In this document: piece after piece, positions 35,408 through 62,158 of the stretch | Layout: each line of letters begins with the position of its first letter | Numbering within the stretch: the first letter of the stretch is position 1 | NCBI GenBank assembly: GCA_016179745.1 | Contig: JACPCP010000013.1 | Coordinates: forward strand, 35,344-99,343 | Direction: 5' to 3' | Length of the DNA: 64,000 nucleotides | Source of the DNA: Candidatus Omnitrophota bacterium | GTDB taxonomy: Bacteria > Omnitrophota > Omnitrophia > Omnitrophales > JACQLI01 | Translations under genes and position numbers: made by a program | Notes under the pieces: model-generated | What the model saw: only the letters and a program-made list of their open reading frames with translations | What the model was told of the DNA's origin: nothing | Database searches by the model: none

Positions 35408-36030
35408 TGAAACACTCCTTTCTTCTGGGGTGTGAAGACGATTTCCATCCCGTAACAGGGAATGAAATAACAAAGATTTTCCTCATAAAATTCCTGAAGC
35501 CAGGTATTCAGGTTGATAAATTTCTCAAAAAGCTTCTTCAGAAAATTGACGCCGTGGAAGGTGGACTGGAAAATGAGGCGCTGCGACAGGATGCGGATAC
35601 GGACGTCCGTATAAAAATTCGGCACTTTCCGCTTGAGCTGGTTTTTCTCCTCCGCAAAATAGTAAAAGGTATAAAGCCCCATGAAACGGGTGTGGGTATA
35701 ATCGGAATAATAGTAGGGGTTGGAAAAATGGGGGACGAAAAGATAATTTTTCCCGCCGGGCTTCAGGACCCGGACAATCTCCCGCATGAAAAACTCAAGA
35801 TTTTCCACGTGTTCAAACAGGCTCTTTGAATGGATTTCATCGACCGAATTGTCCGGCAGGTAGGGAAAGCCCTCGTTCACGTCGGCCACAATGTCCACAC
35901 CCGGGAGGTCGAGGCGGTCAATCCCAATCCTCCCCTCTTGCTTGGCGGGTCCCGAGCCCAGTTCCAGAACCAGTTTTTCTTTCCTCAGCAGGCGTTCGCT
36001 GAGATCAATTTTGAATTTTGGCGGCATCAA
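35404..36030 (-). CDS. Class I SAM-dependent methyltransferase (Methyltransf_11-like)
   Basis: VLELGSGPAKQEG..IGIDR, DEIHSKSLFEHVEN, LKPGGKNYLFVPH. Confidence 0.8.
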   Translation of the reverse strand: MMPPKFKIDLSERLLRKEKLVLELGSGPAKQEGRIGIDRLDLPGVDIVADVNEGFPYLPDNSVDEIHSKSLFEHVENLEFFMREIVRVLKPGGKNYLFVPHFSNPYYYSDYTHTRFMGLYTFYYFAEEKNQLKRKVPNFYTDVRIRILSQRLIFQSTFHGVNFLKKLFEKFINLNTWLQEFYEENLCYFIPCYGMEIVFTPQKKGVFQ

Positions 36031-37816
36031 TGTTCGCTTTAAGGGCCAGCAGTTTTTCCGCAGCCTCGATCACCCGCTCAAGCGGAATCGAACTCATACA
36101 ATCAGGCACCACCTTGGGACAGTGGTCCGGATACTTCATCCGGCCGTCGGGCCAGCATCCCCGGCATTTTAGCTCCGAATAGATCGGAATAAAATGGGGC
36201 TGTTCGGGATATAAAAGCGAGGGATCCAGGGGGCCGTAGAGTCCGACGGCAGGCACTCCCACGGCCACGGCCAAATAAAGGGGGCCCGAATCGTTTCCTA
36301 CAAAAAGATGGCACTCGGTGAGGAGCGCTACCATTTCCCGCAAAGTGGTTTGTCCGATGAGATTGATTCCGACAGGAAGGGGCCGGCCGTCTTTGCCGCT
36401 CACCCAGACCTCTGCCCGATGAGTCTTAATAAAGTATTCGGCCAAACGAATCCAATTTTCTCTCGGCCACCTTTTGGCAAGCCATCCCACTTCGGGGCAA
36501 AGCACGATCCGGAGGTCCGAGTTCCCTGAAAACCATTTCTTTCTGACCTGTCGAATCTCCTCGTCCTTCACATAAACTTTCGGGAGGGACCAGCGATCAA
36601 GGCCGGCAAACCCGGAAAGATAATCCGCCCTCGGCCGGTTTCTCACCTCTTGATGGAGATTCACAACCAGATCGGGATCAAAACGGTTCCCTGCGTTTAT
36701 TGAATCCACAAAGGGGTTGCCTTGGACAAGTTCGGGGTAACGGACCTCGGCATCGATCGCCGAGTGGGGATATTTTTCTTTTAAACCTTGATAGACCGGG
36801 GACGCAATCACTTCATCGCCGATATTCCAATCGACCCGCACCCGGATCTTGAGACGGTTTCCCGTCCCCCGTTTGAGCCAAAACCGGATTTTCCTCCTCA
36901 CGGCAGAACAGCCATCCAAAATCTTTCGTCCTCTCCGGACGAACACGTTTTCCTTCATCAATGAAAATTCCCGCCGGCCCCGTTTTCCTTTGAGGAAATC
37001 AACCCAGCCCCACACCATTCCCCGAAAGGCCTCCTGCTTTCCTCTCAAAAGATACGTAGGAAGGGTCCAGAACAAGGTCTGGAGAGACGTGGAGAAATAA
37101 AACTTCAGAAAGCGTTCCGGTGAAGCCTGTTTCTGGACGAAATAAAGACGGTTACGGGTTTGATAATAAGTGCGGGTCGTTGAATTGTCGCAACGCTCAT
37201 TAGGGGGGCCATGCCAAGCCCGGCTTTCGGGAACGGCCTGCTCCACATAGCCTGCCTGAGACAATCTCAAAAGCCAATCGGCGTCGTCAAAAAAAATAAA
37301 ATAATCCGGATCGAGATACCCTGCCTTCTTTACGGCCTCCATTCGAAGCAAACAAATCCCCAAGGGAGAACGGGTAATTTCCGAACCTATTTCTTCCAGC
37401 GTTGTTCCACGGACGGGCCAGATTTGATCCCTTTTATCGGCATGAAAAACCCGGGGAAAGGCAGCGCCGATCTTGGGATTTCTCTCACAGGCCTCAACCA
37501 ATAAGGACAGGACCCCCGGGTCCGGTTCTCCGTCATTTTCCACGATGAACAAATAGTCTGCTCCGGCCTCGAAGGCAAAACGGAATAGGCTGTTGATCCC
37601 TTCGCCGAAACCAAAATTTTCACGGTGGCGGATCACGTGTGCCTCGGGAAAGCTTTGTCTCAACGTCTCTACCGTGCCGTCGGTGGAGTGGTTGTCCACG
37701 ACCACGAGGGTAAGACCGGGGTAGTCGAGCTTTGAAATCGACTTGAACCAGCGGAATACCCTTTCTTTTTGGTTCCACGTCAGGGTGCCAACAACAACTT
37801 TTTGTTTTTGAGCCAA
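36005..37816 (-). CDS. Fusion protein: GT2 glycosyltransferase + GT9 (heptosyltransferase-like) domain
   Basis: N-domain has VVVGTLTWNQKE..LTLVVVDNHSTDGT, FGFGEGIN and FFDDADW. C-domain has LIGQTTLREMVALLTECHLFVGNDSGPLYLAVAVGVPAVGLYGP (GT9 signature). I prefer TTG 37816, with TAGGAGAG 5 nt upstream spanning the upstream stop at 37829..37827. Confidence 0.8.
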   Translation of the reverse strand: MAQKQKVVVGTLTWNQKERVFRWFKSISKLDYPGLTLVVVDNHSTDGTVETLRQSFPEAHVIRHRENFGFGEGINSLFRFAFEAGADYLFIVENDGEPDPGVLSLLVEACERNPKIGAAFPRVFHADKRDQIWPVRGTTLEEIGSEITRSPLGICLLRMEAVKKAGYLDPDYFIFFDDADWLLRLSQAGYVEQAVPESRAWHGPPNERCDNSTTRTYYQTRNRLYFVQKQASPERFLKFYFSTSLQTLFWTLPTYLLRGKQEAFRGMVWGWVDFLKGKRGRREFSLMKENVFVRRGRKILDGCSAVRRKIRFWLKRGTGNRLKIRVRVDWNIGDEVIASPVYQGLKEKYPHSAIDAEVRYPELVQGNPFVDSINAGNRFDPDLVVNLHQEVRNRPRADYLSGFAGLDRWSLPKVYVKDEEIRQVRKKWFSGNSDLRIVLCPEVGWLAKRWPRENWIRLAEYFIKTHRAEVWVSGKDGRPLPVGINLIGQTTLREMVALLTECHLFVGNDSGPLYLAVAVGVPAVGLYGPLDPSLLYPEQPHFIPIYSELKCRGCWPDGRMKYPDHCPKVVPDCMSSIPLERVIEAAEKLLALKANIDAAKIQN

Positions 37817-37826
37817 GGCAGCTCTC

Positions 37827-38618
37827 CTAGAAACAGGCCCGGTAGGCCAGTTCCGTCCCCCGGATCCAGCGTAGCGGTTTAAATTCGGGACGGGTTTTGT
37901 GAAATTCATTCAAGGCTTGAGTCACACCCGGGCAACCGTGGTAATCGTCCCACAGGATGATCCCCTTTCCGTTCTTTAAAAGCCTCAAGGCAATGAGCGA
38001 ATCATTCACGACATACTCGTAAGCATGGGAGGCATCCACGAAAACGAAATCCATCCGGTTAAAGTAGGGGCTGAAATCAAAAGTGGCGGTATCCCCGTAG
38101 AGTTGAGTGATTTTCTGGGCTTCGGGTTTGCCAAAAAATTGGCTGCCGGACCGGGCTTTGTCGGCTGTCCAGCGTTCGATTTTTTCCAGTTTAAATTTGG
38201 TGGCATGGATCTGCTCACGGGGCAGATCCAGAGTATAAATTTTCGCCTGTTCATTGGAATTCGCCGCCAGATTCAAGGTCGTCCGCCCGTCCAGTGTCCC
38301 CATCTCAAACAGGGCCTCCGGATTGAATTCCTTCACCAGCTGATCGATCACCCAAAGCTCGATCAAGGTCGTGCTCCCCTGCCGGAAAAGAGGTTCCGTG
38401 ATCCGGATGGGGTGATCCTTTTTCAAGATTTCAGAAACCTCGATCTGGGGAAGTAACGGCCTCACCTCCGGCCGGGCCTTGGGTTCGAGCCCGAAATGCC
38501 TCAGGATCGAAGAGATCAAGACCCGGTTCCGGCGGACGAAGAAGCCAAAAACAAAGACATAGATCATGCACGCCAGGGCCAGACAATATTCTTTAACAAA
38601 ACGGATTTTCCTAACCAC
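37827..38618 (-). CDS. Class I SAM-dependent methyltransferase (Methyltransf_24/O-MT-like) with N-terminal TM
   Basis: FEMGTLDGRTTLNLAANS, YTLDL, QLYGDTATFDF, FVFVDASHAYEYV. The start is either GTG 38618 (GGAGG 4 nt upstream) or ATG 38567. The track start 38909 lies inside the Wzx gene. Confidence 0.7.
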   Translation of the reverse strand: MVRKIRFVKEYCLALACMIYVFVFGFFVRRNRVLISSILRHFGLEPKARPEVRPLLPQIEVSEILKKDHPIRITEPLFRQGSTTLIELWVIDQLVKEFNPEALFEMGTLDGRTTLNLAANSNEQAKIYTLDLPREQIHATKFKLEKIERWTADKARSGSQFFGKPEAQKITQLYGDTATFDFSPYFNRMDFVFVDASHAYEYVVNDSLIALRLLKNGKGIILWDDYHGCPGVTQALNEFHKTRPEFKPLRWIRGTELAYRACF

Positions 38619-40056
38619 CTTTCCTCCAGTGAGAAAGATAACTCGTTGCCTGTTGCCACCTGAGAATTCGAAAGGCCAAAAGCAAGAGGCCGTAGATGGC
38701 GACCCCCAAAAGGATATCCAGCAATACCGGCAGATGGGTAAGAGACCTCCACCCCGCAAAGATCGCCAGGAAGACCGCATTGACGAGGGCTGCCTGCCCC
38801 GCTTCGGGCCACGGGATGGGAAGACGGATCCGGGGATCCCGAACGGCATAAAAGAAAGTAAACGCCACCCCCACAAAAGCCCCGATGACGGTTGCAACAG
38901 CCGCACCATTATAACTGTAACGGGGGATCAAAATTAAATTGAGACCGATGTTGGCAATCACCTGCGCCAGGGAGATCCAGGCATCCGCCATTTGTCTCCC
39001 GCCGGCAATCAAGAGATTGGCAAGAAGGCAGCCGAGAAACGCAAACAAGTTATACCAGAGAAGGATCCTGAGCGTCACGGCCGAGGGGGCGTAAGCGGCG
39101 CCAAAAAGGAAAACCGTAAGCTCGGAGGCTACGAGGTTGCCCCCCATGGCGATCGGCAGCCCGAGAAGAAGCAGCAACTTGAATCCCCTCGAGACCGTTC
39201 TCTCGAAAGAGATACGGTCTTCTTTAATGTAACGTGACAGAAGCGGGAAAAGGGAGACCAAAAGCGCAGTTGCGATGATATCGAGGGCTTCCGTCAGGCG
39301 GACCGCCACACTGTAGTAACCCACGTCAAGGAAACTTTTCATCTTTGACAGCATGAAGACATCGATCCGGTAATAAAGGAGCGTCAGGTAGCTGGAGGCA
39401 AGAAGCGGCGCCGACTGACCGAGGAGTCTCCAGATCAACGCCGGGTCAGGGCGGAACTCGAGACGGATAAAGCGCCGGGTATAAAAGGCGAATCCGCCCA
39501 GGGCCAGAAATCCGCTGGCGAGATAGGCCAAGATGAAGGATAGGATGGCAGGCTTGAGAAAAACTGCCGCCGCTACAAATCCGAGGTTTAAGAGATTACG
39601 AATCAGATTCCAAACGGCCGGGTAAATCACCTTGAGCTGGACCCGGTAAATGGTCTCAAGCGCCGCCTGCAGGGTCAGGAAAAGCTGAAAACTCGCCAAG
39701 ACCACTCCCTGCCGGACCTCCATCGGATAACCCAACCATCGAATGAGCGCCCAGGCGACAGGAAGGGCCAGGAAACAAAAAATCAGGCGAAAAAGAAGGG
39801 CGTTGCCCAGGATCCGGGACGCTTCCTCGGGCTTCTGAGTCACTTCCTTTGTAAGGATGGCATTGGAACCAAACTGAACGAGGATTTCGAAAAAGGAAAG
39901 ATAGACGTAAACAAAGCTGAATTGGCCATACGCCTCCCCCGACAGGGAACGGACAATCCAAAGGGCAGTGATAAACTTGAGAAGCCGGGAAACGACGTTC
40001 CCGCCGATGAAGACCGCACTATTATTAATCACTCGGAAAGTCGTTCGAGCGTCCAA
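38611..40056 (-). CDS. Wzx-like oligosaccharide flippase (MOP superfamily, polysaccharide biosynthesis protein family)
   Basis: 481 aa with about 12-14 TM segments. N-terminal INNSAVFIGGNVVSRLLKFITALWIVRSLSGEAYGQFSF is typical of the PST/Wzx family. Confidence 0.8.
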   Translation of the reverse strand: MDARTTFRVINNSAVFIGGNVVSRLLKFITALWIVRSLSGEAYGQFSFVYVYLSFFEILVQFGSNAILTKEVTQKPEEASRILGNALLFRLIFCFLALPVAWALIRWLGYPMEVRQGVVLASFQLFLTLQAALETIYRVQLKVIYPAVWNLIRNLLNLGFVAAAVFLKPAILSFILAYLASGFLALGGFAFYTRRFIRLEFRPDPALIWRLLGQSAPLLASSYLTLLYYRIDVFMLSKMKSFLDVGYYSVAVRLTEALDIIATALLVSLFPLLSRYIKEDRISFERTVSRGFKLLLLLGLPIAMGGNLVASELTVFLFGAAYAPSAVTLRILLWYNLFAFLGCLLANLLIAGGRQMADAWISLAQVIANIGLNLILIPRYSYNGAAVATVIGAFVGVAFTFFYAVRDPRIRLPIPWPEAGQAALVNAVFLAIFAGWRSLTHLPVLLDILLGVAIYGLLLLAFRILRWQQATSYLSHWRKGG

Positions 40057-40064
40057 GGCGGATC

Positions 40065-40319
40065 TTACGTTGAGACCGGATGCTTTTCCCGAATGATTTT
40101 TTGAATGGCCTCGACGCTCACCATCTCTTGGGCAAGTTCGGGAGAAATTTTCAGACCAAACTCTTCTTCTACGGCCAGGACAATATCAATGAAAGTGAGG
40201 GAGTCCCAGTTCTCAATATCTTCCATGCGAGTCTCCAAGCTAATCCTGGGGCGGTGCTCTTTGCCCAGAACCCGGCACAAAAGATTAAGGAGTTTCGGGT
40301 CAACGGCCGCAGGATTCAT
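40065..40319 (-). CDS. Acyl/peptidyl carrier protein (phosphopantetheine-binding)
   Basis: 84 aa. ENWDSLTFIDIVLAVEEEFGLKI contains the DSL Ser attachment motif with the helix II acidic pattern. Overlaps the upstream ligase gene by 20 nt. Confidence 0.8.
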   Translation of the reverse strand: MNPAAVDPKLLNLLCRVLGKEHRPRISLETRMEDIENWDSLTFIDIVLAVEEEFGLKISPELAQEMVSVEAIQKIIREKHPVST

Positions 40320-41502
40320 CTCTCAATCCTTGGGGCCAGGCGGACCTTTCCATCCCTTTCTGCGCATAAAGGGCATAGGCCAGGCGTTCATAGCCATATC
40401 CGGTGCAGCCGGAAAAAATCGGCTCGCATGATTTTCTCCTGATTTGATACGCTTCTGTTAAAGTCTCCTGATGATGATTGAAGGAAGCGACCGCAAGCCA
40501 GTCTTCGGCGTGCGGCAGATAAAGCTGCATTTCATATTTCAGCTTGAAAACCGTCTGATAGGCCCGCCGCTTTTCCGATCCTCCGGCAAAAAAGGCGTCG
40601 CTCGCTGTGATGACACGATATTTCAGCTTCCACTGATGGAAGAGCGCCTTCAAATGATCCAGCGTCCAGGTCCTCTCCGCTTCGACAAAATCCTGTGACC
40701 CGAAATAAATGATTTCCCGCATGGTAAAGGTCTGGAGGCGGTGAAGGCCGCCGACGCCCGCCCCTTCGTTCCGGTGACAGCGCCCGAGCGCCGTAAAAAG
40801 GGAAGTTTCCTTCTCAAGGGTTTGTCCACGCAGGCTTTCAAACGTGTGATAACAAACCGTGGGAGACAAAAGCCGGGTGTGATGAGAAGCAACGTCCTCC
40901 AAAGCGCCGTCAGAACTTAAATATTTTTGAGGGTCTCCGGCCAAACCTTCCACGAGTTCAAAATCATGATGAATGGAGCCAACCAAAAAAAGCTGGTGTG
41001 GGAAACCCGCTACATAGCCATTTTGAACCAGGCTCGTTACGGGAACGGTCGTAGGAACGCCTTGCTCAGCGGCACCTCTTCCGAGAGCCGCCTGATGGAA
41101 AATGCGGTCGAGCGCCTCAAGGTATTTCAAAAATTCTCCCTGATACACATAAATACCCGGCCCGACTTCAATCACCTGACGGTCCCGGGCCAGGACAGGA
41201 TAAGGATCTGAATGATTGAGAAGCTCTCCTTCTTCTTCGGTCACGACCTGGGGAACGGCTTTCTGAAAAGAACGTGAAGTCCGCTGCGCCAGACGCACCA
41301 CCTTTTCCTTGAAGCTGTCCGGATCAGAAGGAGGCTCTGAAAAATGGATCTCAATCTGATGGGAGGAACAGGAGACAGAGGCAATCTTTTCATCCATGAA
41401 ATAAACCTGGTCCCGGAGAAGCCGGAAGGCCTCCCCGGAAAGGGCAATTTCAGCCGGAATAGGGACTAGCAAGGCAAGGCTTTGCGGGGCCATCTTGTGC
41501 AT
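40300..41502 (-). CDS. Class II aminoacyl-tRNA-synthetase-like protein (SerRS-type catalytic core without tRNA-binding domains): candidate amino acid:[carrier protein] ligase
   Basis: Motif-2-like GRCHRNEGAGVGGLHRLQTFTMREIIYFG. Motif-3-like FSGCTGYGYERLAYALY. Candidate Zn ligands are C217, E263 and C366. The N-terminal ~100 aa are unassigned and the start is uncertain (ATG 41502 or 41397). Confidence 0.7.
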   Translation of the reverse strand: MHKMAPQSLALLVPIPAEIALSGEAFRLLRDQVYFMDEKIASVSCSSHQIEIHFSEPPSDPDSFKEKVVRLAQRTSRSFQKAVPQVVTEEEGELLNHSDPYPVLARDRQVIEVGPGIYVYQGEFLKYLEALDRIFHQAALGRGAAEQGVPTTVPVTSLVQNGYVAGFPHQLFLVGSIHHDFELVEGLAGDPQKYLSSDGALEDVASHHTRLLSPTVCYHTFESLRGQTLEKETSLFTALGRCHRNEGAGVGGLHRLQTFTMREIIYFGSQDFVEAERTWTLDHLKALFHQWKLKYRVITASDAFFAGGSEKRRAYQTVFKLKYEMQLYLPHAEDWLAVASFNHHQETLTEAYQIRRKSCEPIFSGCTGYGYERLAYALYAQKGMERSAWPQGLRDESCGR

Positions 41503-41806
41503 GACGGGGCATTATACGATCAATCCCGAACAAGCGCCACCAGATGGGTCCCGAGGAGGCGGTGTCTCCGTAAAGCTGGACGATTTTCCCCGCCTCCGCC
41601 CGGCCCGAGTAACGCAGCCCCGTCGCTTCTTTTTGAATCATCTCTTTTTCCCGCTCCTCCAGTTCAAACCGGGCTGAAGGCATTTGCCCTTTCGGAAGAT
41701 CGATCGTAAAGATGACTGAATCCTCAGGGCTGTTGGCCGAAAGATTCAGCGTGGTCCTTCCGTCAAAAGTCCCCATCTCAAATGGGAACCCTTCACTAAT
41801 TTCCAC
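41450..41806 (-). pseudogene. Internal fragment of a Methyltransf_24-like methyltransferase gene (remnant; the intact paralog is 37827..38618)
   Basis: Only about 75 codons (41558..41782) align: FEMGTFDGRTTLNLSANS..IFTIDLP..IVQLYGDTA versus FEMGTLDGRTTLNLAANS..IYTLDLP..ITQLYGDTA. It lacks the N-terminal ~150 aa and the C-terminal third (FVFVDASH motif absent). Confidence 0.65.
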
Positions 41807-43004
41807 AGTGAAAATACTTGTCGTAGGCGCTCGCCGGCAGAAGATTGGTTTGGCTTAAAAATCTTACGAGAGGCCGGAGTTTCTTTATCAGGCTGTAATG
41901 ATTGGGGTAATCATGGAATGTTTTCGGCGGTAAAGATAAGAACATGCTGAGCTCCGTCCGGGTGATGCCGAGCCGCTTCACACAAAGATCCAAGATCTTT
42001 GGATCTTCGATACTATAGACCTCTTTGACACGCCGAAGGGCTTCCGGCCTTTCCATTTGTCCGGAACGGACTAACGCAGAGTAGAAATAAAGCCTCCGGT
42101 CAATCTTGAACTTCACCCGAAGAATATAAGTCATCAGGCTTTGATAGAGATCGTCAAAATATTTCGCCCCCGGATACACCCAATCCAGCTCGCTTTCCAG
42201 AATCTTCTCGACCTCGGAAATCACATACCTGACATAATAGAGAAACGATATCACTCGAAGTCGGCGCCAGAGGGTGTAATAAAACATATGGAACACGGTC
42301 AGGTTGAATCCTGGATCGTCGGGGGTCCACTTCCTGAGAGGGATGGTTCCAAACAAACGATGGACGGCCTTCAAATATTTCCCGTCCAGGTAATTCCATG
42401 AAAGCGGGGCAATCCCTTCGGTTCTGAACGACCGGCCGAGAAAAATATACTTGATGTTTTCCCTGGCGGCCCGGCCGTAAAGGGCAGTGGCAATACCAAC
42501 GTCTGTCCCCTGCTCCAGATCCGGGGTGGAGGCCTTCAAGAATGAGAGCTTTAAATCCTTTGATTCCCTCCAATCGGAGGTAATCGTCCTCAAATCCACG
42601 CCCAGTTTTTCTGTGGCCCGGATCATATTTTCTCCGGCGACAGGATTCCCGAACCCATCGTTGAAATGAACCGCCAAAGGCCTCAATCCATAAACCTTTT
42701 TGGCCAGGTAGAGGGTATACGTGCTGTCCCGCCCCCCGCTGACTCCAATAATACAGTCATACTTCCTGCGTTTTCCTCGATGCTTAATCCGCTGCATGAG
42801 AAGGGTTAGGGATTCCTTCCCCCTGGCGTCCAAGGGATACCGTTCCTCGAGTCCGTCGTGAACCTTGCAGAAATTGCATTCGCCATTCTCATCAAAAACC
42901 ACACCGGAAACGGTCGTATCCATAATGCAACGGCCGCAAATCCGATATCCCGGTTTTTGTTCTTTGCAGGACTCAAACTTTTCCTGATCCAGGTTCAAAT
43001 CCAT
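41796..43004 (-). CDS. N-acetyl sugar amidotransferase (WbpG/WbuX family), paralog 2
   Basis: CGRCIMDTTVSGVVFDENGECNFCKVHD plus IGVSGGRDSTYTLY. Colinear with ORF 454..1722 over its full length. Confidence 0.85.
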   Translation of the reverse strand: MDLNLDQEKFESCKEQKPGYRICGRCIMDTTVSGVVFDENGECNFCKVHDGLEERYPLDARGKESLTLLMQRIKHRGKRRKYDCIIGVSGGRDSTYTLYLAKKVYGLRPLAVHFNDGFGNPVAGENMIRATEKLGVDLRTITSDWRESKDLKLSFLKASTPDLEQGTDVGIATALYGRAARENIKYIFLGRSFRTEGIAPLSWNYLDGKYLKAVHRLFGTIPLRKWTPDDPGFNLTVFHMFYYTLWRRLRVISFLYYVRYVISEVEKILESELDWVYPGAKYFDDLYQSLMTYILRVKFKIDRRLYFYSALVRSGQMERPEALRRVKEVYSIEDPKILDLCVKRLGITRTELSMFLSLPPKTFHDYPNHYSLIKKLRPLVRFLSQTNLLPASAYDKYFHCGN

Positions 43005-43013
43005 GGGGAATTA

Positions 43014-43155
43014 AAATCAAAACCCAGCTTTTTTAACCTCTCTCCGATGGCCGTTCCTTTTTCCAACCGATCAGGCACCGAGATATCCGCTATGACAAGG
43101 TCGCCCGCAAATTCATTGAATTTCCCACGGGCCACAACACCCTTTTTATCCACCG
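43014..43155 (-). pseudogene. Orphan copy of the 3' end (last ~47 codons) of the CN-hydrolase gene
   Basis: By manual alignment to 46252..46393, 7 mismatches fall in the ~133-nt core. It would encode VDKKGVVARGKFNEFAGDLVIADISVPDRLEKGTAIGERLKKLG. There is no start codon and an upstream in-frame stop. Confidence 0.8.
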
Positions 43156-43179
43156 TCGCATCTATGAATCCTGTCTTCC

Positions 43180-44541
43180 TCAGACTATTTTGAATTTACA
43201 GAAAGCGTAAGCACTCATTTTAAAAAGAAGACCGGCATGGAAAAAGCGGCGGATGTTGGTCTGCCCGTAAGAGCGTGCCCGGTAACGGATCGGGATCTCG
43301 AGAATTTTCAAGTGAAGTTTGGCGGCACCGAAAATCAGATCAAAATCTCCAAAAGGATCAAAATCACCGAAAAATTTCCTTCCCTCCTGAACCTTCTTGT
43401 AGTTTTTCTGTAAAAGGGCTTTTGTTCCGCAAAGCGTATCCTTAATAGGCACCTCCAAAATCCAACTGAGAAGAAGGCTGAAAAATTTATTCCCCAATAT
43501 ATTCACAAATCTCATGGAATCTTTCTCGAGCGGATAAACCAACCGGGACCCCATGACCATTTCTCCCTGTCCTTCCACAATAGCGTTATAAAACTTTGTA
43601 AGTTCCTCCGGCGGGACGGTCAGGTCGGCATCCAGTATCATCAGGATATCCCCCGTTGACTCCTCAAATCCCCTTCTGACAGCGTCTCCCTTCCCCTCTC
43701 CTCTCTGCCGGAAGGCCTTCATTTTCCATTCTCGTCCGTATTTTTCCTGAATCCTCAAAATTTCCTCCCAAGTCCCGTCTTTAGAGTGGCCTTCAACGAA
43801 AATAATTTCCGTCCCGCTCCCAAGACGTGGCATCCGTTGAATTGCCGTCTCAATATTTCCCTTTTCGTTCCGGACCGGCACCACTACCGAGACGGAAAGT
43901 TTTTCGTCCCGTTGGGAAATTAAAGGCCGTGCGACAAAATATTGAGTGAGACACAGACGGTTAATCAGAGGAAGTTTTGCAAGGAAGACATTGATGAAAT
44001 CGGTAAGCACGGGGATTTTAAACGGGAAAAGAAGCCGAAAACCATGACGAATCAACTCATGCCCCGACAAATGAAGCAGGCACTGGATATCGTAAGGTGA
44101 AAGCCAGTTTTGAATTCTTTCCTTTCTGGCTCTGTTAAATAAGCTGAGCAGCGAAAAAAAAGGAGCCCACAGATAATTCCAGTTAAAGATCACCAAACGA
44201 GTGCCCCGATGACTTTTTTGTCTCAATAGGCTAAGCACTTCCTGGATGTCGAAAATGAGGGAAAGGGAATGATCGATCACGATAAAGTCGAATGTGTTAC
44301 TGCTTTCTTTTAAATCTCTGGTTTCCTCCGGTCGCACCCATAAACAAGATCCCGATTGAAACCCACCCCGTAAATCCTCGCTTTCTTCGCCGATGAACAG
44401 AATGGAAGCTTCCGGAGGAATCATAAAGCGGCAAAAACGAAGGAAATCCTTTCGTTCGACCGATAAAGGTTGAGCCAATACAGACTCCCCCTCTTCTCGG
44501 GACAGGGATTCTTCAGTGGGAATTTTTGTAGGAATGCTCAT
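43180..44541 (-). CDS. Two-domain protein: N-terminal methyltransferase-like (degenerate motif I) domain + GT2 glycosyltransferase
   Basis: C-domain has LSVSVVVPVRNEKGNIE, IIFVEGHSKDGT, LMILDADLTVPPEEL. N-domain has ILFIGEESEDL..FDFIVIDHSL..LRQKSHRGTRLVIFNWN (MTase-like topology; SAM motif unclear). Confidence 0.7.
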   Translation of the reverse strand: MSIPTKIPTEESLSREEGESVLAQPLSVERKDFLRFCRFMIPPEASILFIGEESEDLRGGFQSGSCLWVRPEETRDLKESSNTFDFIVIDHSLSLIFDIQEVLSLLRQKSHRGTRLVIFNWNYLWAPFFSLLSLFNRARKERIQNWLSPYDIQCLLHLSGHELIRHGFRLLFPFKIPVLTDFINVFLAKLPLINRLCLTQYFVARPLISQRDEKLSVSVVVPVRNEKGNIETAIQRMPRLGSGTEIIFVEGHSKDGTWEEILRIQEKYGREWKMKAFRQRGEGKGDAVRRGFEESTGDILMILDADLTVPPEELTKFYNAIVEGQGEMVMGSRLVYPLEKDSMRFVNILGNKFFSLLLSWILEVPIKDTLCGTKALLQKNYKKVQEGRKFFGDFDPFGDFDLIFGAAKLHLKILEIPIRYRARSYGQTNIRRFFHAGLLFKMSAYAFCKFKIV

Positions 44542-45451
44542 ACCAATCGATTGTTTTTCGAAGTCCTTCTACAAAGGGAAGTTTTGCACGAAATGCAAAA
44601 AGCCTTTCGGCCCTTGAAACATCGAGCAGGCGGCGGGGCTGGCCATTCGGTTTGGTTGGGTCCCACTCGAATTTTCCGGCATACCCCATAAACTCCGAAA
44701 CTTTAAGGACCAAATCCTTAATAGAAATTTCTTGACCGCTCCCGAGGTTGACGGGTTCACCCCCTTCATACCGCTCCACGGCCAGCACAATGGCCTCAGC
44801 GGCTTCGTCCACATAAAGAAATTCCCTCGTCGCAGAACCATCCCCCCAAACCTTTATCGATTGTTTTGCGGTTGCCTTGGCCTCTGAAATCTTTCGGATG
44901 AGGGCTGGAATGACATGAGAAGAACTTGGTTCAAAATTGTCGCCGGGGCCGTAGAGGTTGACGGGGATTAAAAAAATTGAATTCATTCCATACTGTTCAC
45001 GATAGGCCTGCATTTGCACCATTAAAGCCTTTTTGGCAATTCCATAGGGGGCGTTTGTCTCCTCCGGATACCCCTCCCAAATCGATTCCTCTCGAAATGG
45101 AGCGGGACAGAATTTGGGATACGAACAAACCGTCCCGACCACGACCATCTTCCGAACCTTGGCACGACGGCAGGCTTCGATCAATTGCGCTCCCATAATC
45201 AAATTGTCATAAAACAATTCCCCCGGCCTTTCACGGTTCAAACCGATTCCACCCACCCGCCCTGCCAGGTGAATCACTAAATCCTTCCCTTGCACCGCCT
45301 GTTCCACATTCCCCCAAATCCTTAGATCGCAGTTATTGGAACGGGGAATTTCGATGGTCATTCCCGGAAACCGGCTTTTGAGGCGGGCGACAACCGCCCG
45401 TCCCAAGAATCCATTCCCTCCTGTTACCAAAGCGTGTTTAAACCCAGGCAT
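44513..45451 (-). CDS. fcl: GDP-L-fucose synthase-like (GDP-4-keto-6-deoxymannose 3,5-epimerase/4-reductase)
   Basis: ALVTGGNGFLGRAV, YGIAKKAL (YxxxK), PVNLYGPGDNFEPSSSHVIPALIRKISEAK (characteristic Fcl block), GDGSATREFLYVDE. Confidence 0.8.
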   Translation of the reverse strand: MPGFKHALVTGGNGFLGRAVVARLKSRFPGMTIEIPRSNNCDLRIWGNVEQAVQGKDLVIHLAGRVGGIGLNRERPGELFYDNLIMGAQLIEACRRAKVRKMVVVGTVCSYPKFCPAPFREESIWEGYPEETNAPYGIAKKALMVQMQAYREQYGMNSIFLIPVNLYGPGDNFEPSSSHVIPALIRKISEAKATAKQSIKVWGDGSATREFLYVDEAAEAIVLAVERYEGGEPVNLGSGQEISIKDLVLKVSEFMGYAGKFEWDPTKPNGQPRRLLDVSRAERLFAFRAKLPFVEGLRKTIDWYEHSYKNSH

Positions 45452-45454
45452 TGT

Positions 45455-46162
45455 TCATTCCCCGTTTTTCCTTTTAATGACAAGGTATTGTATCAAGCAA
45501 AGACGGTTTAAAAAAGGGATCTGGGGCATCCAAGAATTTAGAAATGAGGCCAAGAGAGGGATTCGTTTTGGAACAAACATCCGATACCCCTTTTTGACAA
45601 CCGTCAAATTAAGCTCCTCTAGCGTTTTGAGAATTTCACTCATCGAAACAAAACGGTTGGGCCCTTCGGGCATTTTCAGTCCTCGTTTTTCGGCCCATTT
45701 TAAAAAAAAATCCCACAACGGGTTCGCCGTCAAAACAATCATTTCGGAGGCCGGAGTCAAAATCTCACAGAAAGAACCAAAGGCGGCTCTTAAATCTGTA
45801 AGGTGGTCCAGCAGGTCGATAAGAATTATGAAATCGAATTGCCCTTTGACCGCTAAGTGATCACAGTCCGACACAAGGAAATGGCCGTTGGGGTGCTTCT
45901 GCCGGGCCCGACGAACCATCCCCTCACTTAAGTCAATCCCGACCCCGTGTCGAGGCCCCAAGGAAGCTAAGAGGGTCCCTGTTCCACAACCCACGTCTAA
46001 CACCCTTTTGCCGGGAGGGATTCGAGATTTCAAGAATCTTAGAATCTCCTCATAGTAATATTCATTTTTCTTTTTCCAACCATCATAGTGTTCGGCAATA
46101 TCTTCAAAATGTCGCTTAACCGCTGCTTTCTCCTTCCGATCCGTTTCGTTGATCGCATCCAT
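45455..46162 (-). CDS. Class I SAM-dependent methyltransferase
   Basis: VLDVGCGTGTL motif I, GIDLSEGMV, FDFIILIDLLDHL. GGAGG SD 7 nt upstream of ATG 46162. Confidence 0.85.
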   Translation of the reverse strand: MDAINETDRKEKAAVKRHFEDIAEHYDGWKKKNEYYYEEILRFLKSRIPPGKRVLDVGCGTGTLLASLGPRHGVGIDLSEGMVRRARQKHPNGHFLVSDCDHLAVKGQFDFIILIDLLDHLTDLRAAFGSFCEILTPASEMIVLTANPLWDFFLKWAEKRGLKMPEGPNRFVSMSEILKTLEELNLTVVKKGYRMFVPKRIPLLASFLNSWMPQIPFLNRLCLIQYLVIKRKNGE

Positions 46163-46238
46163 CTAAAGTTCCTCCACCGCATAAAGCATAGGTTTCTCGT
46201 TTTCCAAAGCGACGTTCAGGCGGTCACCCAGGTCGTGT

Positions 46239-47078
46239 TCATGAAGCGCTGAAATCGCAGCCCAGCTTTTTTAACCTCTCTCCGATGGCCGTTCCTTTTT
46301 CCAACCGGTCAGGCACCGAGATATCCGCCATGACAAGGTCTCCCGCAAATTCGTTGAACTTCCCACGGGCCACCACGCCCTTTTTATCCACCGCCAGGGA
46401 ACAACCCACCATCTTCTTTCCTTCGTAAGGGCCGCCGACAATATAGCCCACACTGGTGGCCCCCACAATCACCAGGTCATACAACCGGGCGAGAAGGGTG
46501 TAGGGCTTGATCCATTTTTCTTTATAGGGGTCTTCGGTTTCATCGATGGAATAATCCACGGTCCAAGACGATGGGGAAAGAATCAATTGCGCCCCCATTC
46601 GGGCCAGGGCGTGCCCAATCGGAAGACCATCGACATAGTTATCCGCACAGATATTGACCCCGATTTTTCCAAACTCTGTGTCGACAACGGAAAGAGATTG
46701 ACCCACAGAATAAAAAGGCTGCTCCACCGTTAGCAGATTGATTTTATGATACTTCAAAAGGATTTGACCTCCCGGATCCACCAGCAACGCCGCATTAAAC
46801 CTTTGGTCCCCCGAACGTTCCGTCAAGCCCGCACAGACATAAAGGTGAGACTCCCTTGCCAGCTCACAAATCCGATCGCTGAAACGGCCCGGGATCGGCT
46901 CAGCCCCGGAAAGACTGCTGGGATGGGTCCAGCCAAAATCCAGGGTCTCGGGAAGCAGCAAAAGATCACAGCCCTTCTCGTGGGCCTCTTTCGCCATTGT
47001 CTGGGCCCGTCCGAGATTTCTTTCCGGTTCTCCCCCTTCCACCAAAAGCTGTCCCATTCCAATCTTCAATTTTTTCAT
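46239..47078 (-). CDS. Carbon-nitrogen hydrolase (nitrilase-superfamily) protein
   Basis: Putative Glu-Lys-Cys triad contexts: LLLLPETLDFGW, LLKYHKINLL, IGVNICADN. 279 aa. TAAATG junction with the upstream gene. Confidence 0.85.
   Translation of the reverse strand: MKKLKIGMGQLLVEGGEPERNLGRAQTMAKEAHEKGCDLLLLPETLDFGWTHPSSLSGAEPIPGRFSDRICELARESHLYVCAGLTERSGDQRFNAALLVDPGGQILLKYHKINLLTVEQPFYSVGQSLSVVDTEFGKIGVNICADNYVDGLPIGHALARMGAQLILSPSSWTVDYSIDETEDPYKEKWIKPYTLLARLYDLVIVGATSVGYIVGGPYEGKKMVGCSLAVDKKGVVARGKFNEFAGDLVMADISVPDRLEKGTAIGERLKKLGCDFSAS
46252..46393 (-). repeat. Parent copy (within the intact CN-hydrolase gene) of the 142-bp segment duplicated at 43014..43155
   Basis: Direct repeat in the same orientation, about 3.2 kb apart, roughly 95% identical by manual alignment. 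Confidence 0.8.
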
Positions 47079-49373
47079 TTAGTAGACGCTGGATTCGCCC
47101 TTTTCGTTCTTTGTTTCGATCCGGATCCGGTATTCCCCGGATTGAACCCCCAGTAAAGGCGAAAGATCATCCGTCAGCCAACGGGAGCCGTCAAAAAAAA
47201 TACTGCGAGAGCCCCCGTGGTTCAGAGGAATTTCCCCATTGAGCCGGGCGTCGCCGTCATGCACGTATTTATACATTGAAATCTCCCCGGAAGAACGTTG
47301 GAATAGCGGCCCGTGAAATAGGGGCCGAGCGTTTGAAACGGCGTAATCCCCCGCTACCTCCCAGGCATTGTCCTTCAAGTGAACTGCCCTGGTGTCCTTT
47401 GAATAAAATTCAATCGTATTGAATTCCCCCTCCCGGAGAATCCCGGAGGGAAGGGGGATTGAAAACCACTGCCGCATTTCAAAGGCCTTCCGCTCCTCAT
47501 CGTTCAGAAATCTTCGGTAAAAATCCTCGCCTTCGATCAAGAAACTCGACGGGACTTCATCCTTTTGAAGGGCCCCCAGGTTTCCAATTTCTTTCCCATT
47601 GACCATGACGGCCCAGTCTAGTTTCCCCTCGGAAAGAATCAGATCGACCCGCAAAGTTTCTTCAACCGTCCTCCCAAGGCTCCCGGGAGGGATAAAGATC
47701 TCCTGACGGATCCGGAAGGCCGGGTGATCGATTCTTGCTTTCCATTCGTGCCAGCTTTCCTGACAGAGACCGTAGACCCCAAAAAGCGCCAAAAAAATTA
47801 TACCGCCCGTTAAAAGCATGCCCACAAGCCGGCGTCTTGGGAGCGCTGGGGCAAGCCACACCCCCAGCGCAATGAGGAAAGCTAAAACAGAGACCGTCTC
47901 GACCGCCAATTTTATTATCAGGAGGGATCTTCCCGTTAGCCCCGGGCTGATGAGAAGCACAGTTTCGGGGCGGGCCAGATGAAAACCAATGACCGCCGGT
48001 AAAGCCACGGCCGCCCCCATCAGGATTTTCCTCTTTGATGCAAAAAAAACCCCTCGGTTTTTCCAAAAAAAATCAACCGCATAACCCGAAAAAATTAACA
48101 CAAACGGCATGAAGGTAACATTGTAACGGGTCTCAATATGAAAAAAACAGTGGAGCAGCGTAGCATAGAAAGGCACCGAAAAATAGAGAACCGCCTTTGC
48201 CGGAAGGCCGGTTCCGGCGAGAAGAAGCCCAAAAAGGCCGAGAAGAATGAATGCTCGGTGTCCCCAAAGAAACCATTCCGAAGGAAACGCATAATACCGC
48301 CAAGGCCAGTCATACGGTTCCCACCAAAGCCTCCGCACTTTCAGAAGATAAAGCTTCAAAAATTGAGCCGGAGACTTCAAGATTTGAGCGACGGCTGCCT
48401 TCTTCAGTTCCGTATCAAGCGGCCAAGCCCTGATGCCGCCGGTTTCCAAGGCCTCGAGACCGAGTTTCTCGAGAGCCACGTTGCCCGCTTCTGAGAATCG
48501 AGCAAACACGGCCATAAAATCCGGCAGCCATCCGTCATACTCAGGGACATTGGAAAACAAAAGCGCCTTCCCTTGATCGGACATCGCAGCCACGGTGCCC
48601 GGCCTCTGGACCTGCCACGAGACGGCGGCCATCCACAAAAGATACGGGATTAAAAAAACAACAAACGTATTTCTGAGATAAACCCCGGAAAACTTCAAGC
48701 CACGCTGGAAGCGGCCCAGGCACCCCAAAATTCCAAAGAGGAAAAAGGGAAAGTAGATCAAAGACAATTTCGAAAGACTCAACAAAAAAAGCACAACTCC
48801 CGACGCCACGGAGGCCCCGAAGAAACGGCGTTGACGAAAACGGGTCATCGCCGCAAAAAAAAGAAGCAGTAAAAAGGTGGCAAGGGACTCCTGATGAATT
48901 TTTCCGGCGACAAACACAAGCGGCGGATAAACCGCCGCTAAAAATGCGGCGAGAAGCCCGGTCCTCGCTCCCCCCATATCCTTCCCCAATCCATAAACTA
49001 AAAATAGAGCCAGACTCAAAAGCAGCGCCTGGACCATGAAGACAGGAAAAGCGTTTGTTCCCGTGAACCCGGTCACAAAGGCAAGGAAAAGGGGGTAAGT
49101 CAACCCCCGTTTGAAAGCGCCCCACGGCAGAACCAGCCCGTATTTTTCAAGCAGACTCCCGGACGGGTCCGCCCGGCTCGTCAAAAGGTCCTTCAGGAGA
49201 GGCCCCCCTTGCTTTAGATAAGCCTGGATTTGAAAACCCGTCTTCCAGTAAAGACCGTCATCATCTTTGGCTTCCAGGGGCTGGCGGGGCGGAGATGTAA
49301 AGAGAAGGACAAGACGGACGGCCAATGAAAGAAGGACTACCCAGAAAATCAGAGGGACTCGCTTCTTTTCCAT
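47079..49373 (-). CDS. Large GT-C-like polytopic membrane protein with ~250-aa C-terminal extracytoplasmic domain
   Basis: 764 aa. First loop PLEAKDDDGLYWKTGFQI. About 13 TM segments. The C-terminal hydrophilic domain (residues ~520-764) has no motif I recognise. Confidence 0.6.
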   Translation of the reverse strand: MEKKRVPLIFWVVLLSLAVRLVLLFTSPPRQPLEAKDDDGLYWKTGFQIQAYLKQGGPLLKDLLTSRADPSGSLLEKYGLVLPWGAFKRGLTYPLFLAFVTGFTGTNAFPVFMVQALLLSLALFLVYGLGKDMGGARTGLLAAFLAAVYPPLVFVAGKIHQESLATFLLLLFFAAMTRFRQRRFFGASVASGVVLFLLSLSKLSLIYFPFFLFGILGCLGRFQRGLKFSGVYLRNTFVVFLIPYLLWMAAVSWQVQRPGTVAAMSDQGKALLFSNVPEYDGWLPDFMAVFARFSEAGNVALEKLGLEALETGGIRAWPLDTELKKAAVAQILKSPAQFLKLYLLKVRRLWWEPYDWPWRYYAFPSEWFLWGHRAFILLGLFGLLLAGTGLPAKAVLYFSVPFYATLLHCFFHIETRYNVTFMPFVLIFSGYAVDFFWKNRGVFFASKRKILMGAAVALPAVIGFHLARPETVLLISPGLTGRSLLIIKLAVETVSVLAFLIALGVWLAPALPRRRLVGMLLTGGIIFLALFGVYGLCQESWHEWKARIDHPAFRIRQEIFIPPGSLGRTVEETLRVDLILSEGKLDWAVMVNGKEIGNLGALQKDEVPSSFLIEGEDFYRRFLNDEERKAFEMRQWFSIPLPSGILREGEFNTIEFYSKDTRAVHLKDNAWEVAGDYAVSNARPLFHGPLFQRSSGEISMYKYVHDGDARLNGEIPLNHGGSRSIFFDGSRWLTDDLSPLLGVQSGEYRIRIETKNEKGESSVY

Positions 49374-53574: not shown

Positions 53575-54033
53575 CTATTTGCGCTTCGTTTTCTTATGCC
53601 TCTTGCCATTCTTGAAGGCTGAAACCTCTTCTCTCAAGCTTCGAACGACTCGGGCCGGGATTCCTACAACCAGGGAATAAGCTGGGATTTTGGTGTTTTC
53701 GGTCACCACGGCACCGGCTCCGATGACGCTGTGGTGGCCGATTTCAACGCCTTTGAGGATTGTAGCATTTTCGCCAATGAAAACGTTATGACCGATTTTT
53801 GTCCGGGCAAAGTCGATCTTGTTATGACGTCTTCCACTAATACAACGCCTTACAGTTGAATGGGTTACGATATGGGCGCCGCAGCTGATGTCACAGGCCT
53901 TGCCGATCTCCAACCCCCCCAGCCCGTCAATCAGGCAAAAGGCTCCGATCCAGGTGCCCTTGCCGATTTTAGGGTTTCCCGTAATCCAGGCATGAGGATT
54001 AAAGGGGTTGGGTGGGATTCCGTGATCCTTCAT
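53575..54033 (-). CDS. Left-handed beta-helix (hexapeptide-repeat) acyl/acetyltransferase
   Basis: Hexapeptide periodicity in IGHNVFIGENATILKGVEIGHHSVIGAGAVVTENTKIP. Confidence 0.8.
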   Translation of the reverse strand: MKDHGIPPNPFNPHAWITGNPKIGKGTWIGAFCLIDGLGGLEIGKACDISCGAHIVTHSTVRRCISGRRHNKIDFARTKIGHNVFIGENATILKGVEIGHHSVIGAGAVVTENTKIPAYSLVVGIPARVVRSLREEVSAFKNGKRHKKTKRK

Positions 54034-54039
54034 TATCGC

Positions 54040-55119
54040 TTACAGAGAAATGACTCTTCCTCCCTCCTTCATGGACTGGTCCGCCGCCTCCAAAATCCTG
54101 ACCACCCGGTTTCCGTTCTCTCCGTCGGTCCGAGGCGGGCGGTTTCCAAAGATGCTGTCCAGGAAATGCTCGCACTCTGTTTTCAAGGGTTCTTTGAAAT
54201 CAAGGTGGGGGCTGACCACATCTCCCATCCGGTAATCAACCCGAACTTCCGTGCTATTGGCGTCAAGGTGGGCGCCCCGATCGGCGATCTTCAGTTTTTC
54301 GGAAGGATCGAGGTCGTCGTATAAAACCATTTTTTTGCTGCCCACAAGAGTCATCCGCCTGATCTTTGCCGGTGCCAGCCAGCTTAAATGAACGTGGGCC
54401 AAAGTCCCTCCTGGAAATTCCATCCGGATGAACGCCACATCCGCCGTCCCCTTCTGGAGGTAAGCCTGCCCGAAGGCGCTCACTCGCTGGGGTATCTTCC
54501 CCACCCAATGCAGGATGATTGAAAGGTCATGAGGGGCAAGGTCCCAAATCACATTCCGCCCGTCCGATTGATACCGCCCGAGGTTGACCCGCACCGAGTC
54601 AATGTAGTAAAGCTCGCCGAGCTCCTGCGATTTCAATAGCTCGGCCACTTTCAAAACCGCAGGATTGTATTCAAAGGTGTGACCAACCATTAAAATCCTT
54701 CCCTTTCGCCGGGCAAGGTTAATCAATTCCGTTCCTTCACTGCTCGAAGCGGCCAGCGGCTTCTCAACCAAAACGTGCTTGCCGGCTTGAAGGGCTGTCT
54801 GGGCCAATTCGAAGTGCGTGGATACCGGCGTTGCAATGACAACAGCATCGACCGCTGGGTCCCGAAGAATTTCCTGGTGGACAGTCGTTAAACGAAGGGC
54901 AGGGTATCTTTTCGCCAAGGGGGTCAAAACACTTTTTCGAAGATCGGCGACGGCCACAACTCTGGACCGGTCCAAATCCTGAAAATTACGGACAAGATTC
55001 GGACCCCAGTAGCCAAAGCCAATGACACCGATACGGACAACGGCGCTGGGGCCTTTGCTTGACGCTGTGTGAGCCCTGGGCTTCTTCGACGGCCGCCTTT
55101 TTTGTTCTTCTGTCTTCAT
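54040..55119 (-). CDS. Gfo/Idh/MocA-family NAD(P) oxidoreductase (WbpB/WlbA-like sugar 3-dehydrogenase candidate)
   Basis: VRIGVIGFGYWGPNLVRNF Rossmann motif, VLVEKPLA, ILMVGHTFEYNPAV. Paralog of 61111..62157. Confidence 0.85.
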   Translation of the reverse strand: MKTEEQKRRPSKKPRAHTASSKGPSAVVRIGVIGFGYWGPNLVRNFQDLDRSRVVAVADLRKSVLTPLAKRYPALRLTTVHQEILRDPAVDAVVIATPVSTHFELAQTALQAGKHVLVEKPLAASSSEGTELINLARRKGRILMVGHTFEYNPAVLKVAELLKSQELGELYYIDSVRVNLGRYQSDGRNVIWDLAPHDLSIILHWVGKIPQRVSAFGQAYLQKGTADVAFIRMEFPGGTLAHVHLSWLAPAKIRRMTLVGSKKMVLYDDLDPSEKLKIADRGAHLDANSTEVRVDYRMGDVVSPHLDFKEPLKTECEHFLDSIFGNRPPRTDGENGNRVVRILEAADQSMKEGGRVISL

Positions 55120-62157: not shown

Positions 62158-62158
62158 C

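Follow-up and report, generated by a model that had tools for sequence, protein, structure and literature searches.

Gene remnants and non-native junctions around a WbuX-type amidotransferase gene in a polysaccharide gene cluster of an uncultured Omnitrophota bacterium

The window analysed here, a 64-kb stretch (positions 35,344 to 99,343) of contig JACPCP010000013.1 from the Candidatus Omnitrophota bacterium assembly GCA_016179745.1, is a long polysaccharide gene cluster that is encoded nearly entirely on the minus strand. Within it, an intact gene for a WbuX/NASAT-type N-acetyl sugar amidotransferase (41796..43004, minus strand) lies between two gene remnants, namely the 3' tail of a second CN-hydrolase gene (termed H2) and a broken Methyltransf_24 gene (termed MT24b). 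The region contains three non-native junctions (J1, J2 and J3), two native junctions (H2 tail to amidotransferase, and MT24b 3' end to a ligase gene resembling those of aminoacyl-tRNA synthetases, aaRS), a conserved pairing of CN-hydrolase with amidotransferase, and a neighbouring three-gene segment of deviant composition. Judged from these comparisons, the region is an ordinary glycan-locus mosaic generated by rearrangement and decay. The direction and order of the events have to be deduced, and the explanation that we favour, with a probability of about 0.5, is that an incoming block displaced resident genes at J1 while MT24b decayed in place.

Read along the minus strand, the gene order is PMT-like protein, intact CN-hydrolase (H1), the three-gene segment M, E and G, H2, amidotransferase, MT24b fragment, ligase, carrier protein, Wzx flippase, a second and intact Methyltransf_24 gene (MT24a) and GT2/GT9, with family assignments taken from Pfam and NCBIfam matches. 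An original prediction, derived from the DNA letters alone, had already described the amidotransferase flanked by two remnants and had called the region a recombination mosaic; self-BLASTN and TBLASTN locate both remnants, and all three non-native junctions are reproduced in independent assemblies. That prediction further held that a CN-hydrolase, amidotransferase and methyltransferase block had been imported, and that the ligase and its acyl carrier protein (ACP) were a recent acquisition joined at the break in the methyltransferase; as detailed below, these latter proposals fare less well.

Results

A start-less CN-hydrolase tail precedes the amidotransferase

The intact CN-hydrolase gene H1 (46239..47078, minus strand; 279 aa; Pfam PF00795, 109 bits) encodes a protein that is 72-73% identical in amino acid (aa) sequence to its counterparts upstream of amidotransferase genes in four related loci (L010, L012, L014 and L021). 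Its 3' tail (46252..46393, minus strand) recurs immediately ahead of the amidotransferase at 43014..43155, with 93.0% identity over 142 nt (self-BLASTN, E 4e-56), in agreement with the start-less tail of ~47 codons that had been predicted there, while at the protein level residues 230-278 match 43153..43007 at 92% over 49 aa (TBLASTN, E 1e-23). H2 (43007..43155, minus strand) therefore comprises the last ~49 codons of a CN-hydrolase gene and has no counterpart of codons 1-229; alignment places only a 24-nt spacer (43156..43179) between it and the stop of the upstream gene G (43180..44541). With homology that is partial, no start and no upstream part, H2 is a gene remnant, and the boundary at 43155/43156 is the non-native junction J1, whose spacer is reproduced in three independently assembled contigs (L007-L009). 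The two repeat copies share a perfect 47-nt core (43023..43069 and 46261..46307) and bracket 3,096 nt containing the three genes M, E and G. When all window proteins were searched against the window by TBLASTN, H2 and the MT24b piece were the only paralog fragments found to lie outside an intact gene anywhere in the 64 kb.

Across codons 2-45 of the H1 and H2 tails, all eight differences fall at third codon positions and seven are synonymous, for which the neutral expectation is (1/3)^8, or ~1.5e-4; the last seven codons hold ten differences. The eight third-position differences indicate that H2 diverged from H1 (by ~6%) at a time when it still worked as a gene, whether it then belonged to another genome or was a second functional copy, with truncation coming late. 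Of the two origins put forward in the original prediction, an earlier tandem duplication in situ followed by neutral decay is ruled out by this pattern, whereas an origin from a related locus fits it. The 76-nt spacer that follows H1 bears no trace of an amidotransferase 5' end (local alignment score 9, shuffle mean 8.0, 32% of shuffles reaching that score), so the duplication ends at the CN-hydrolase stop codon, and homology that ends at this point indicates that two arrangements sharing the CN-hydrolase gene, one followed by M-E-G and the other by the amidotransferase, were combined.

The amidotransferase is intact and its CN-hydrolase partner is widely conserved

The 402-aa amidotransferase scores 219.6 bits against TIGR03573 (cut-off 203.2), aligns end to end with 13 homologues, retains all invariant columns and carries the conserved C-terminal YDKYF(H/N)CG. 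The motifs defined for NASAT proteins, a PP-loop SGGxDS and a tetracysteine CxxC...[GN]xCxxC (PMC10607449), are shared by the LpNASAT structure and the window protein, in which the PP-loop reads SGGRDS at residues 89-94 and the zinc-motif cysteines C23, C26, C43 and C46 are invariant. On the strength of the cut-off and both motifs the protein can be placed in the WbuX/NASAT family and is predicted to perform ATP-dependent conversion of an N-acetyl to an acetamidino group; the gene is probably still used. A paralog at 454..1722 is 65% identical, and two genes upstream of that paralog lies a gene for a 672-aa protein (2911..4929) that combines a glutamine amidotransferase domain (GATase_6/7) with a stretch sharing 31-33% identity with the PP-loop portion of both WbuX amidotransferases.

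The end of the H2 reading frame overlaps the amidotransferase start codon (43004..43002). When GTDB genomes were searched with the CN-hydrolase as query, 80 related loci were obtained (L068-L147), and in 59 of these the amidotransferase is directly downstream of the CN-hydrolase, as it also is in L010/L011 and L014/L015. Record titles of the GTDB loci name Omnitrophota, Hymenobacter and other Bacteroidota, Bdellovibrionota, Planctomycetota, Nealsonbacteria, Saccharibacteria (candidate-phyla-radiation), Elusimicrobia and others, and the CN-hydrolase and WbuX amidotransferase thus form a widely conserved two-gene module of many phyla. Since the pair is conserved and the frame of H2 runs into the amidotransferase start codon, the H2 tail and the amidotransferase represent a native operon junction, and this much of the imported block originally proposed is upheld. 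The conserved neighbour of the window amidotransferase differs from the HisH/HisF-like WbuY and WbuZ partners of WbuX. The pair resembles the split of glutamine-dependent NAD synthetase into a CN-hydrolase glutaminase and a PP-loop synthetase, and by this analogy the CN-hydrolase may be the source of ammonia when acetamidino sugars are formed. In the paper on the NASAT structure, ammonia is mentioned but no CN-hydrolase partner (PMC10607449).

A doubly truncated methyltransferase gene follows the amidotransferase

The open reading frame (ORF) at 41450..41806 keeps the central part of a Methyltransf_24 gene, as had been predicted. Residues 104-179 of MT24a (263-aa numbering) match 41782..41555 on the minus strand with 54% identity (TBLASTN, E 1e-20), the fragment extending from S-adenosylmethionine (SAM)-binding motif I to YGDTA, and its identity to full-length homologues in L021-L024 and L055 is 55-58%. 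A chimeric query (window fragment plus the C-terminus from contig L016, described below) retrieved 47 loci with MT24 homologues from JGI metagenomes, and in nearly all of them the alignment begins within residues 1-7 of the 263-aa paralog; ~100 N-terminal codons are accordingly missing from MT24b. The scar of this 5' truncation, J2 (41783..41806, minus strand), runs from the amidotransferase stop to ~codon 100 of MT24b and is reproduced in contigs L001-L006. An apparent extension of methyltransferase homology upstream of 41806 into the 3' end of the amidotransferase (TBLASTN, word size 2) proved spurious on inspection, and when the 92-aa methyltransferase fragment served as query in a protein search, it matched nothing but itself.

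The other end of MT24b is clarified by L016, a 4-kb contig and the only close relative found (ligase P0123, 79% aa identity). L016 is collinear with window 41565..37823 (80.3% over 3,749 nt) and carries, in order, the 3' part of MT24b, the ligase, the carrier protein, the flippase, MT24a and the start of GT2/GT9. Its MT24b, for which the comparison covers the 3' half only, has the last 84 codons intact (FDFGPYFG...DFVFVDASH...GTQLVALVLE, then stop; 59% identical to the C-terminal part of MT24a) directly upstream of the ligase. The window fragment ends ...QLYGDTAS at the point where the L016 part begins, L016 positions ~3-219 have no counterpart, and homology then resumes at 41503..41558 with the 12 final codons, stop and spacer, collinear with L016. 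These 12 codons and the native stop (41520..41558, minus strand) translate to LLGTHLVALVRD in the window, compared with RLSGTQLVALVLE in L016 and ...IRGTELAYRACF in the paralog MT24a, each ending at its stop, and are frame-shifted relative to the central fragment because the ~217-nt loss is not a multiple of three. Thus the predicted end of methyltransferase homology at about 41558 holds for the central fragment, whereas the end of the gene persists in a shifted frame at 41558..41520.

The internal deletion junction J3 lies in a 20-nt zone (41546..41565, minus strand) that matches both flanks of the deletion. The segment missing from the window ends ACGCCGCCTCAGCGGGACC in L016, where its 5' edge, deduced since the contig starts there, reads (ACACCG)CCTTCGACTTCGGACC; imperfect direct repeats, ACNCCGCCT...CGGRACC, flank the segment. 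J3 can accordingly be read as a short-repeat deletion of the slipped-strand or microhomology-mediated type: ~217 nt have been lost between imperfect repeats that are seen in an intact relative, albeit a relative 20% diverged and with a 5' repeat that is partly deduced at the contig start. The L016 contig begins within ~2 nt of the 5' edge of the deleted segment (L016 1..3 against window 41555..41566), which may be coincidence or a sign of variability at that point in the L016 population. In total, MT24b lacks ~100 N-terminal and ~72 internal codons, including the DFVFVDASH region, and the 118-aa ORF has no Pfam match; these features mark it as a pseudogene, doubly truncated and frame-shifted, although public annotation at 41450..41806 gives a 108-aa 'hypothetical protein' (HYU34_02990).

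The ligase and carrier protein are long-standing neighbours of the methyltransferase

The collinearity with L016 shows that the junction between MT24b and the ligase is native and older than ~20% nucleotide divergence. The break at ~41558 is consequently an internal ~217-nt deletion in the gene that natively precedes the ligase and not a point at which ligase and ACP were joined; the 3' end of MT24b, its stop and a conserved 17-nt spacer (41503..41519, minus strand) still stand before the ligase as they do in L016. The ligase (40300..41502, 400 aa), the carrier protein (40065..40319, 84 aa; PF00550, 31.6 bits), the Wzx-type flippase (38611..40056; PF01943) and MT24a (37827..38618, 263 aa; PF13578, 42.7 bits; L016 3161..3952), all on the minus strand, are 79, 76, 82 and 83% identical at the aa level to their L016 counterparts, an even divergence which argues that they co-diverged as one block. 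The ligase is rare: among 5.8 billion proteins, 43 homologues reach E<1e-10. The ligase/ACP pair occurs in 0 of 127 related loci. Across the wider family the pair is therefore a rare accessory module, but it has long resided in its block, so that of the earlier description as a recent accessory acquisition, 'accessory' can be retained and 'recent' cannot, given the even divergence from L016 and an unremarkable composition. The best amidotransferase homologue in Logan, P0003, is not from the L016 sample and did not extend L016 upstream.

The ligase, of the class II aaRS-like type (PDB 3mey, E 2e-24), scores 132.7 bits against NF005479, below the equivalog cut-off of 357, and 25.1 against 29.3 for Pfam tRNA-synt_2b; it resembles amino acid--[carrier protein] ligases while falling outside formal family membership. 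With the amino acid--[acyl-carrier-protein] ligases such as Bradyrhizobium Bll0957 (PDB 3mey) it shares a truncated class II seryl-tRNA-synthetase-like core beside a small carrier protein, and it differs from them in its low score, an extra N-terminal region of ~110 residues and its setting in a glycan locus. The carrier protein gene overlaps the ligase stop, and carrier domains adjoin the ligase in L016-L019 too, where this aaRS-like ligase is always beside a carrier protein or domain in glycan or nonulosonic-acid-type loci. This context suggests aminoacyl decoration of a sugar.

Composition singles out the M-E-G segment

Third-codon-position GC content (GC3) was surveyed in 53 genes of the window (mean 0.61, standard deviation 0.045). 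The three lowest values, and the only outliers, belong to the segment between the repeat copies (43180..46162, minus strand), which consists of M, a SAM methyltransferase (45455..46162; GC3 0.50, z -2.35), E, a GDP-fucose-synthase-like epimerase/reductase (44513..45451; 0.52, z -1.98), and G, a fusion of a methyltransferase-like part with GT2 (43180..44541; 0.49, z -2.59). The amidotransferase (0.60), H1 (0.59), the methyltransferase fragment (0.61), the ligase (0.55) and ACP (0.57) are all in the normal range, the latter two being unremarkable if slightly low (z -1.3 and -1.0). Comparison of 40065..43180 with its flanks had been proposed as a check on the ligase/ACP pair, and by this ranking the deviant piece is M-E-G instead. 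A codon-usage likelihood ratio (three-gene against native model) was too weak to class the amidotransferase, ligase or ACP.

The junctions recur in independent assemblies

Per-sample Logan contigs (k=31) were used as independent assemblies. Contigs L001-L006, from six samples, correspond to the window from 43052 downwards at 99.95-100% identity over up to 10.5 kb, a stretch that includes the amidotransferase, the MT24b fragment and the ligase. Contigs L007-L009 correspond at 100% identity to the window from 46290, 46109 and 45624, respectively, down to 43040, covering M, E and G as well as the 24-nt spacer and the beginning of H2; L007, which spans exactly 46290..43040, was seen in seven samples. 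All Logan contigs stop at the perfect 47-nt core, as expected for a k=31 graph, and short-read graphs therefore do not connect the CN-hydrolase with M-E-G and the amidotransferase. Because they are reproduced in these per-sample assemblies, J1, J2 and J3 are real and not an assembly chimera, a possibility that the original prediction had raised.

Other features of the window

Upstream of H1 lies the PMT-like protein (47079..49373, minus strand, 764 aa), and MT24a is followed by GT2/GT9 (36005..37909, minus strand). The databases list the amidotransferase, the ligase (HYU34_02985) and the 108-aa fragment as Candidatus Omnitrophica MAG (metagenome-assembled genome) proteins, while exact look-ups of the CN-hydrolase and of the NCBI-version amidotransferase gave no record. 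The GTDB scan with the CN-hydrolase returned nothing above 73% aa identity, and the source genome is apparently not among the matches. Neither insertion sequence (IS) elements nor H-repeats were noticed at the junctions. When 40000..47200 was scanned for promoters and terminators, the number of sites was lower than in shuffled controls, and no site lay at a junction. Elsewhere in the cluster, paralogous gene sets are present (54040..55119 and 61111..62250, 41% aa identity; 53575..54033 and 62159..62761, ~50% over the C-termini), and the pairing of 53575..55119 with 61111..62761 indicates a putative older internal duplication.

Discussion

Under the explanation that we favour, two native units meet in this region. 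One is the CN-hydrolase and WbuX amidotransferase pair, and the other the block of MT24b, aaRS-like ligase, carrier protein, Wzx flippase, MT24a and GT2/GT9 that is conserved in L016. The incoming block would have consisted of a CN-hydrolase allele with M-E-G. Its recombination would most likely have relied on homology within the CN-hydrolase gene, followed by an illegitimate join of the far end of the block to the interior of the resident CN-hydrolase. As a result, the amidotransferase would have been pushed downstream together with the old CN-hydrolase tail, with H2 cut to its last ~49 codons and H1 left as the sole intact CN-hydrolase. At J2 and J3, MT24b would have decayed in place, losing ~100 5' codons up to the amidotransferase stop and also the internal ~217 nt. 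We favour displacement because it accounts for the direct repeat, for the unusual composition of the genes between the repeat copies and for an ancestral adjacency of CN-hydrolase and amidotransferase that is otherwise typical.

Several observations weigh against this history. The H2 tail has a GC3 of 0.48, which resembles M-E-G, compared with 0.64 for the H1 tail, and the amidotransferase is native-like at 0.60; these tail values are contrary to what the simplest displacement model, with H-M-E-G incoming, predicts. A synonymous codon-usage likelihood test separates M-E-G from the other genes weakly. The linkage across the 47-nt core comes from the MAG assembler alone, the 5' half of MT24b is absent from the L016 contig so that the 5' truncation is deduced from more distant family members, and the closest relatives of the amidotransferase and CN-hydrolase found are only 67-73% identical (aa), with no pre-event arrangement seen among them. 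Lastly, both remnants flank one and the same gene, which would be a coincidence if J1 and J2 were independent and is better accommodated by a single insertion.

Such an insertion, to which we give a minor but appreciable share of the probability, would have brought a 1.36-kb piece of CN-hydrolase tail and amidotransferase from a related strain in between G and MT24b, replacing the 5' third of MT24b; J1 and J2 would be its two ends and J3 a later decay, which amounts to the original prediction without its methyltransferase and ligase parts. It would account for the position of the only two gene fragments of the window on either side of the amidotransferase, for the divergence of H2 as a functional gene, probably from another genome or copy, and for the deviant GC3 of the H2 tail. 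It requires two illegitimate joins without a homologous anchor, however, which PMC5361080, citing experimental work, treats as much rarer than anchored events, and it would leave the pre-insertion CN-hydrolase without its usual adjacent partner. The amidotransferase has a native-like GC3, and the compositional deviance of the segment between the repeats would go unexplained. A slightly less probable scenario is that of reductive decay, in which two full-length CN-hydrolase paralogs once coexisted (H1-M-E-G-H2-amidotransferase) and three independent deletions removed redundant genes, H2 being redundant with H1 and MT24b with MT24a. Third-position-only divergence shows that through most of its past H2 still functioned, the locus retains an intact paralog of each decayed gene, and J3 is demonstrably a simple deletion; moreover, the CN-hydrolase and amidotransferase pair of L010 is preceded by a GT2 and a methyltransferase, making an order of glycosyltransferase followed by CN-hydrolase plausible. 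This scenario nevertheless calls for three separate deletions around one gene in addition to an earlier, unexplained event that created the second copy, and no locus with two CN-hydrolases was seen among the 127 related loci, in a search that was not exhaustive.

A mis-assembly that joined two strains or loci at the repeat is very unlikely. The perfect 47-nt core and the breaking of all Logan contigs there would be in keeping with it, but J1, J2 and J3 lie outside the core and are reproduced in 6-9 samples at 99.95-100%, copy-specific single-nucleotide differences link the left of the core to the G end and the right to the amidotransferase, and the only alternative linkage would be a 3.1-kb circle or tandem array of M-E-G. 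Least credible of all is the full model of the original prediction, in which CN-hydrolase, amidotransferase and methyltransferase were imported together and ligase and ACP were joined later at the methyltransferase break. The rarity of the ligase/ACP pair, its absence from the related loci and its slightly low GC3 speak for the model; against it, the ligase is still joined to the 3' end of the methyltransferase with its stop and spacer, collinear with L016, where that 3' part is intact, and the block has co-diverged evenly from L016. Nor was a locus found in which an amidotransferase is followed by Methyltransf_24; L021 instead has the order CN-hydrolase, Methyltransf_24, further genes, amidotransferase, further genes, flippase and GT2/GT9. 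We also consider it improbable that the 142-nt repeats with their 47-nt core make M-E-G a reversible cassette, with the remnant perhaps kept as a translated leader. Were this so, RecA recombination would excise 43156..46251 together with one repeat copy and restore an intact CN-hydrolase coupled to the amidotransferase, and a population could switch a methyl/deoxyhexose-type glycan modification on or off. As a 52-codon leader (42995..43153) the remnant may couple translation into the amidotransferase, which would explain the third-position-only differences.

The displacement that we favour has counterparts in well-studied systems. Homology-facilitated illegitimate recombination was proposed for the orphan immunity/effector arrays of Vibrio cholerae type VI secretion system (T6SS) clusters (PMC5361080), and C-terminal displacement in rhs loci is cited in that paper. 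In these cases a conserved upstream gene serves as anchor, the old module is pushed downstream with a 3'-end fragment of the anchor and a direct repeat of the anchor-gene 3' end brackets the new module; the window would match this arrangement, and its direct repeat is present. It differs in that the anchor is a CN-hydrolase in a polysaccharide locus and not a toxin or VgrG gene, in that a single putative displacement and no array is seen, and in that the amidotransferase concerned is intact. Among related loci the order of the same genes varies: between CN-hydrolase and amidotransferase L012 has three further genes, and in Ca. Omnitrophus fodinae (L070) the CN-hydrolase and amidotransferase are followed by GT1 and by E-like (56%) and G-like (46%) genes. 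Shuffling of modules in this manner is typical of surface-glycan loci. Gene remnants and pseudogenes occur in the O-antigen and capsule clusters of Enterobacteriaceae and Streptococcus pneumoniae, with which the window shares a long co-directional operon of shuffled modules and truncated paralogs marking past recombination; the differences are the host, an uncultured Omnitrophota MAG, and the lack of visible IS elements or H-repeats at the junctions.

The main value of this study is corrective, as the ligase/carrier pair emerges as a long-standing part of a methyltransferase, ligase, ACP and flippase block and not as a recent graft, and the 118-aa 'hypothetical protein' at 41450..41806 is to be read as a methyltransferase pseudogene. 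The ~6% divergence between the CN-hydrolase tails, with seven of the eight core differences synonymous, provides a dated marker, and the wide conservation of the CN-hydrolase and WbuX pairing, obtained as a by-product, suggests an ammonia-supplying partnership. Glycan loci in which recombination and deletion have left gene remnants are already well known, and the present region is another instance; the remnant-leaving module shuffling of O-antigen and capsule loci in cultured bacteria is hereby documented in an uncultured Omnitrophota lineage.

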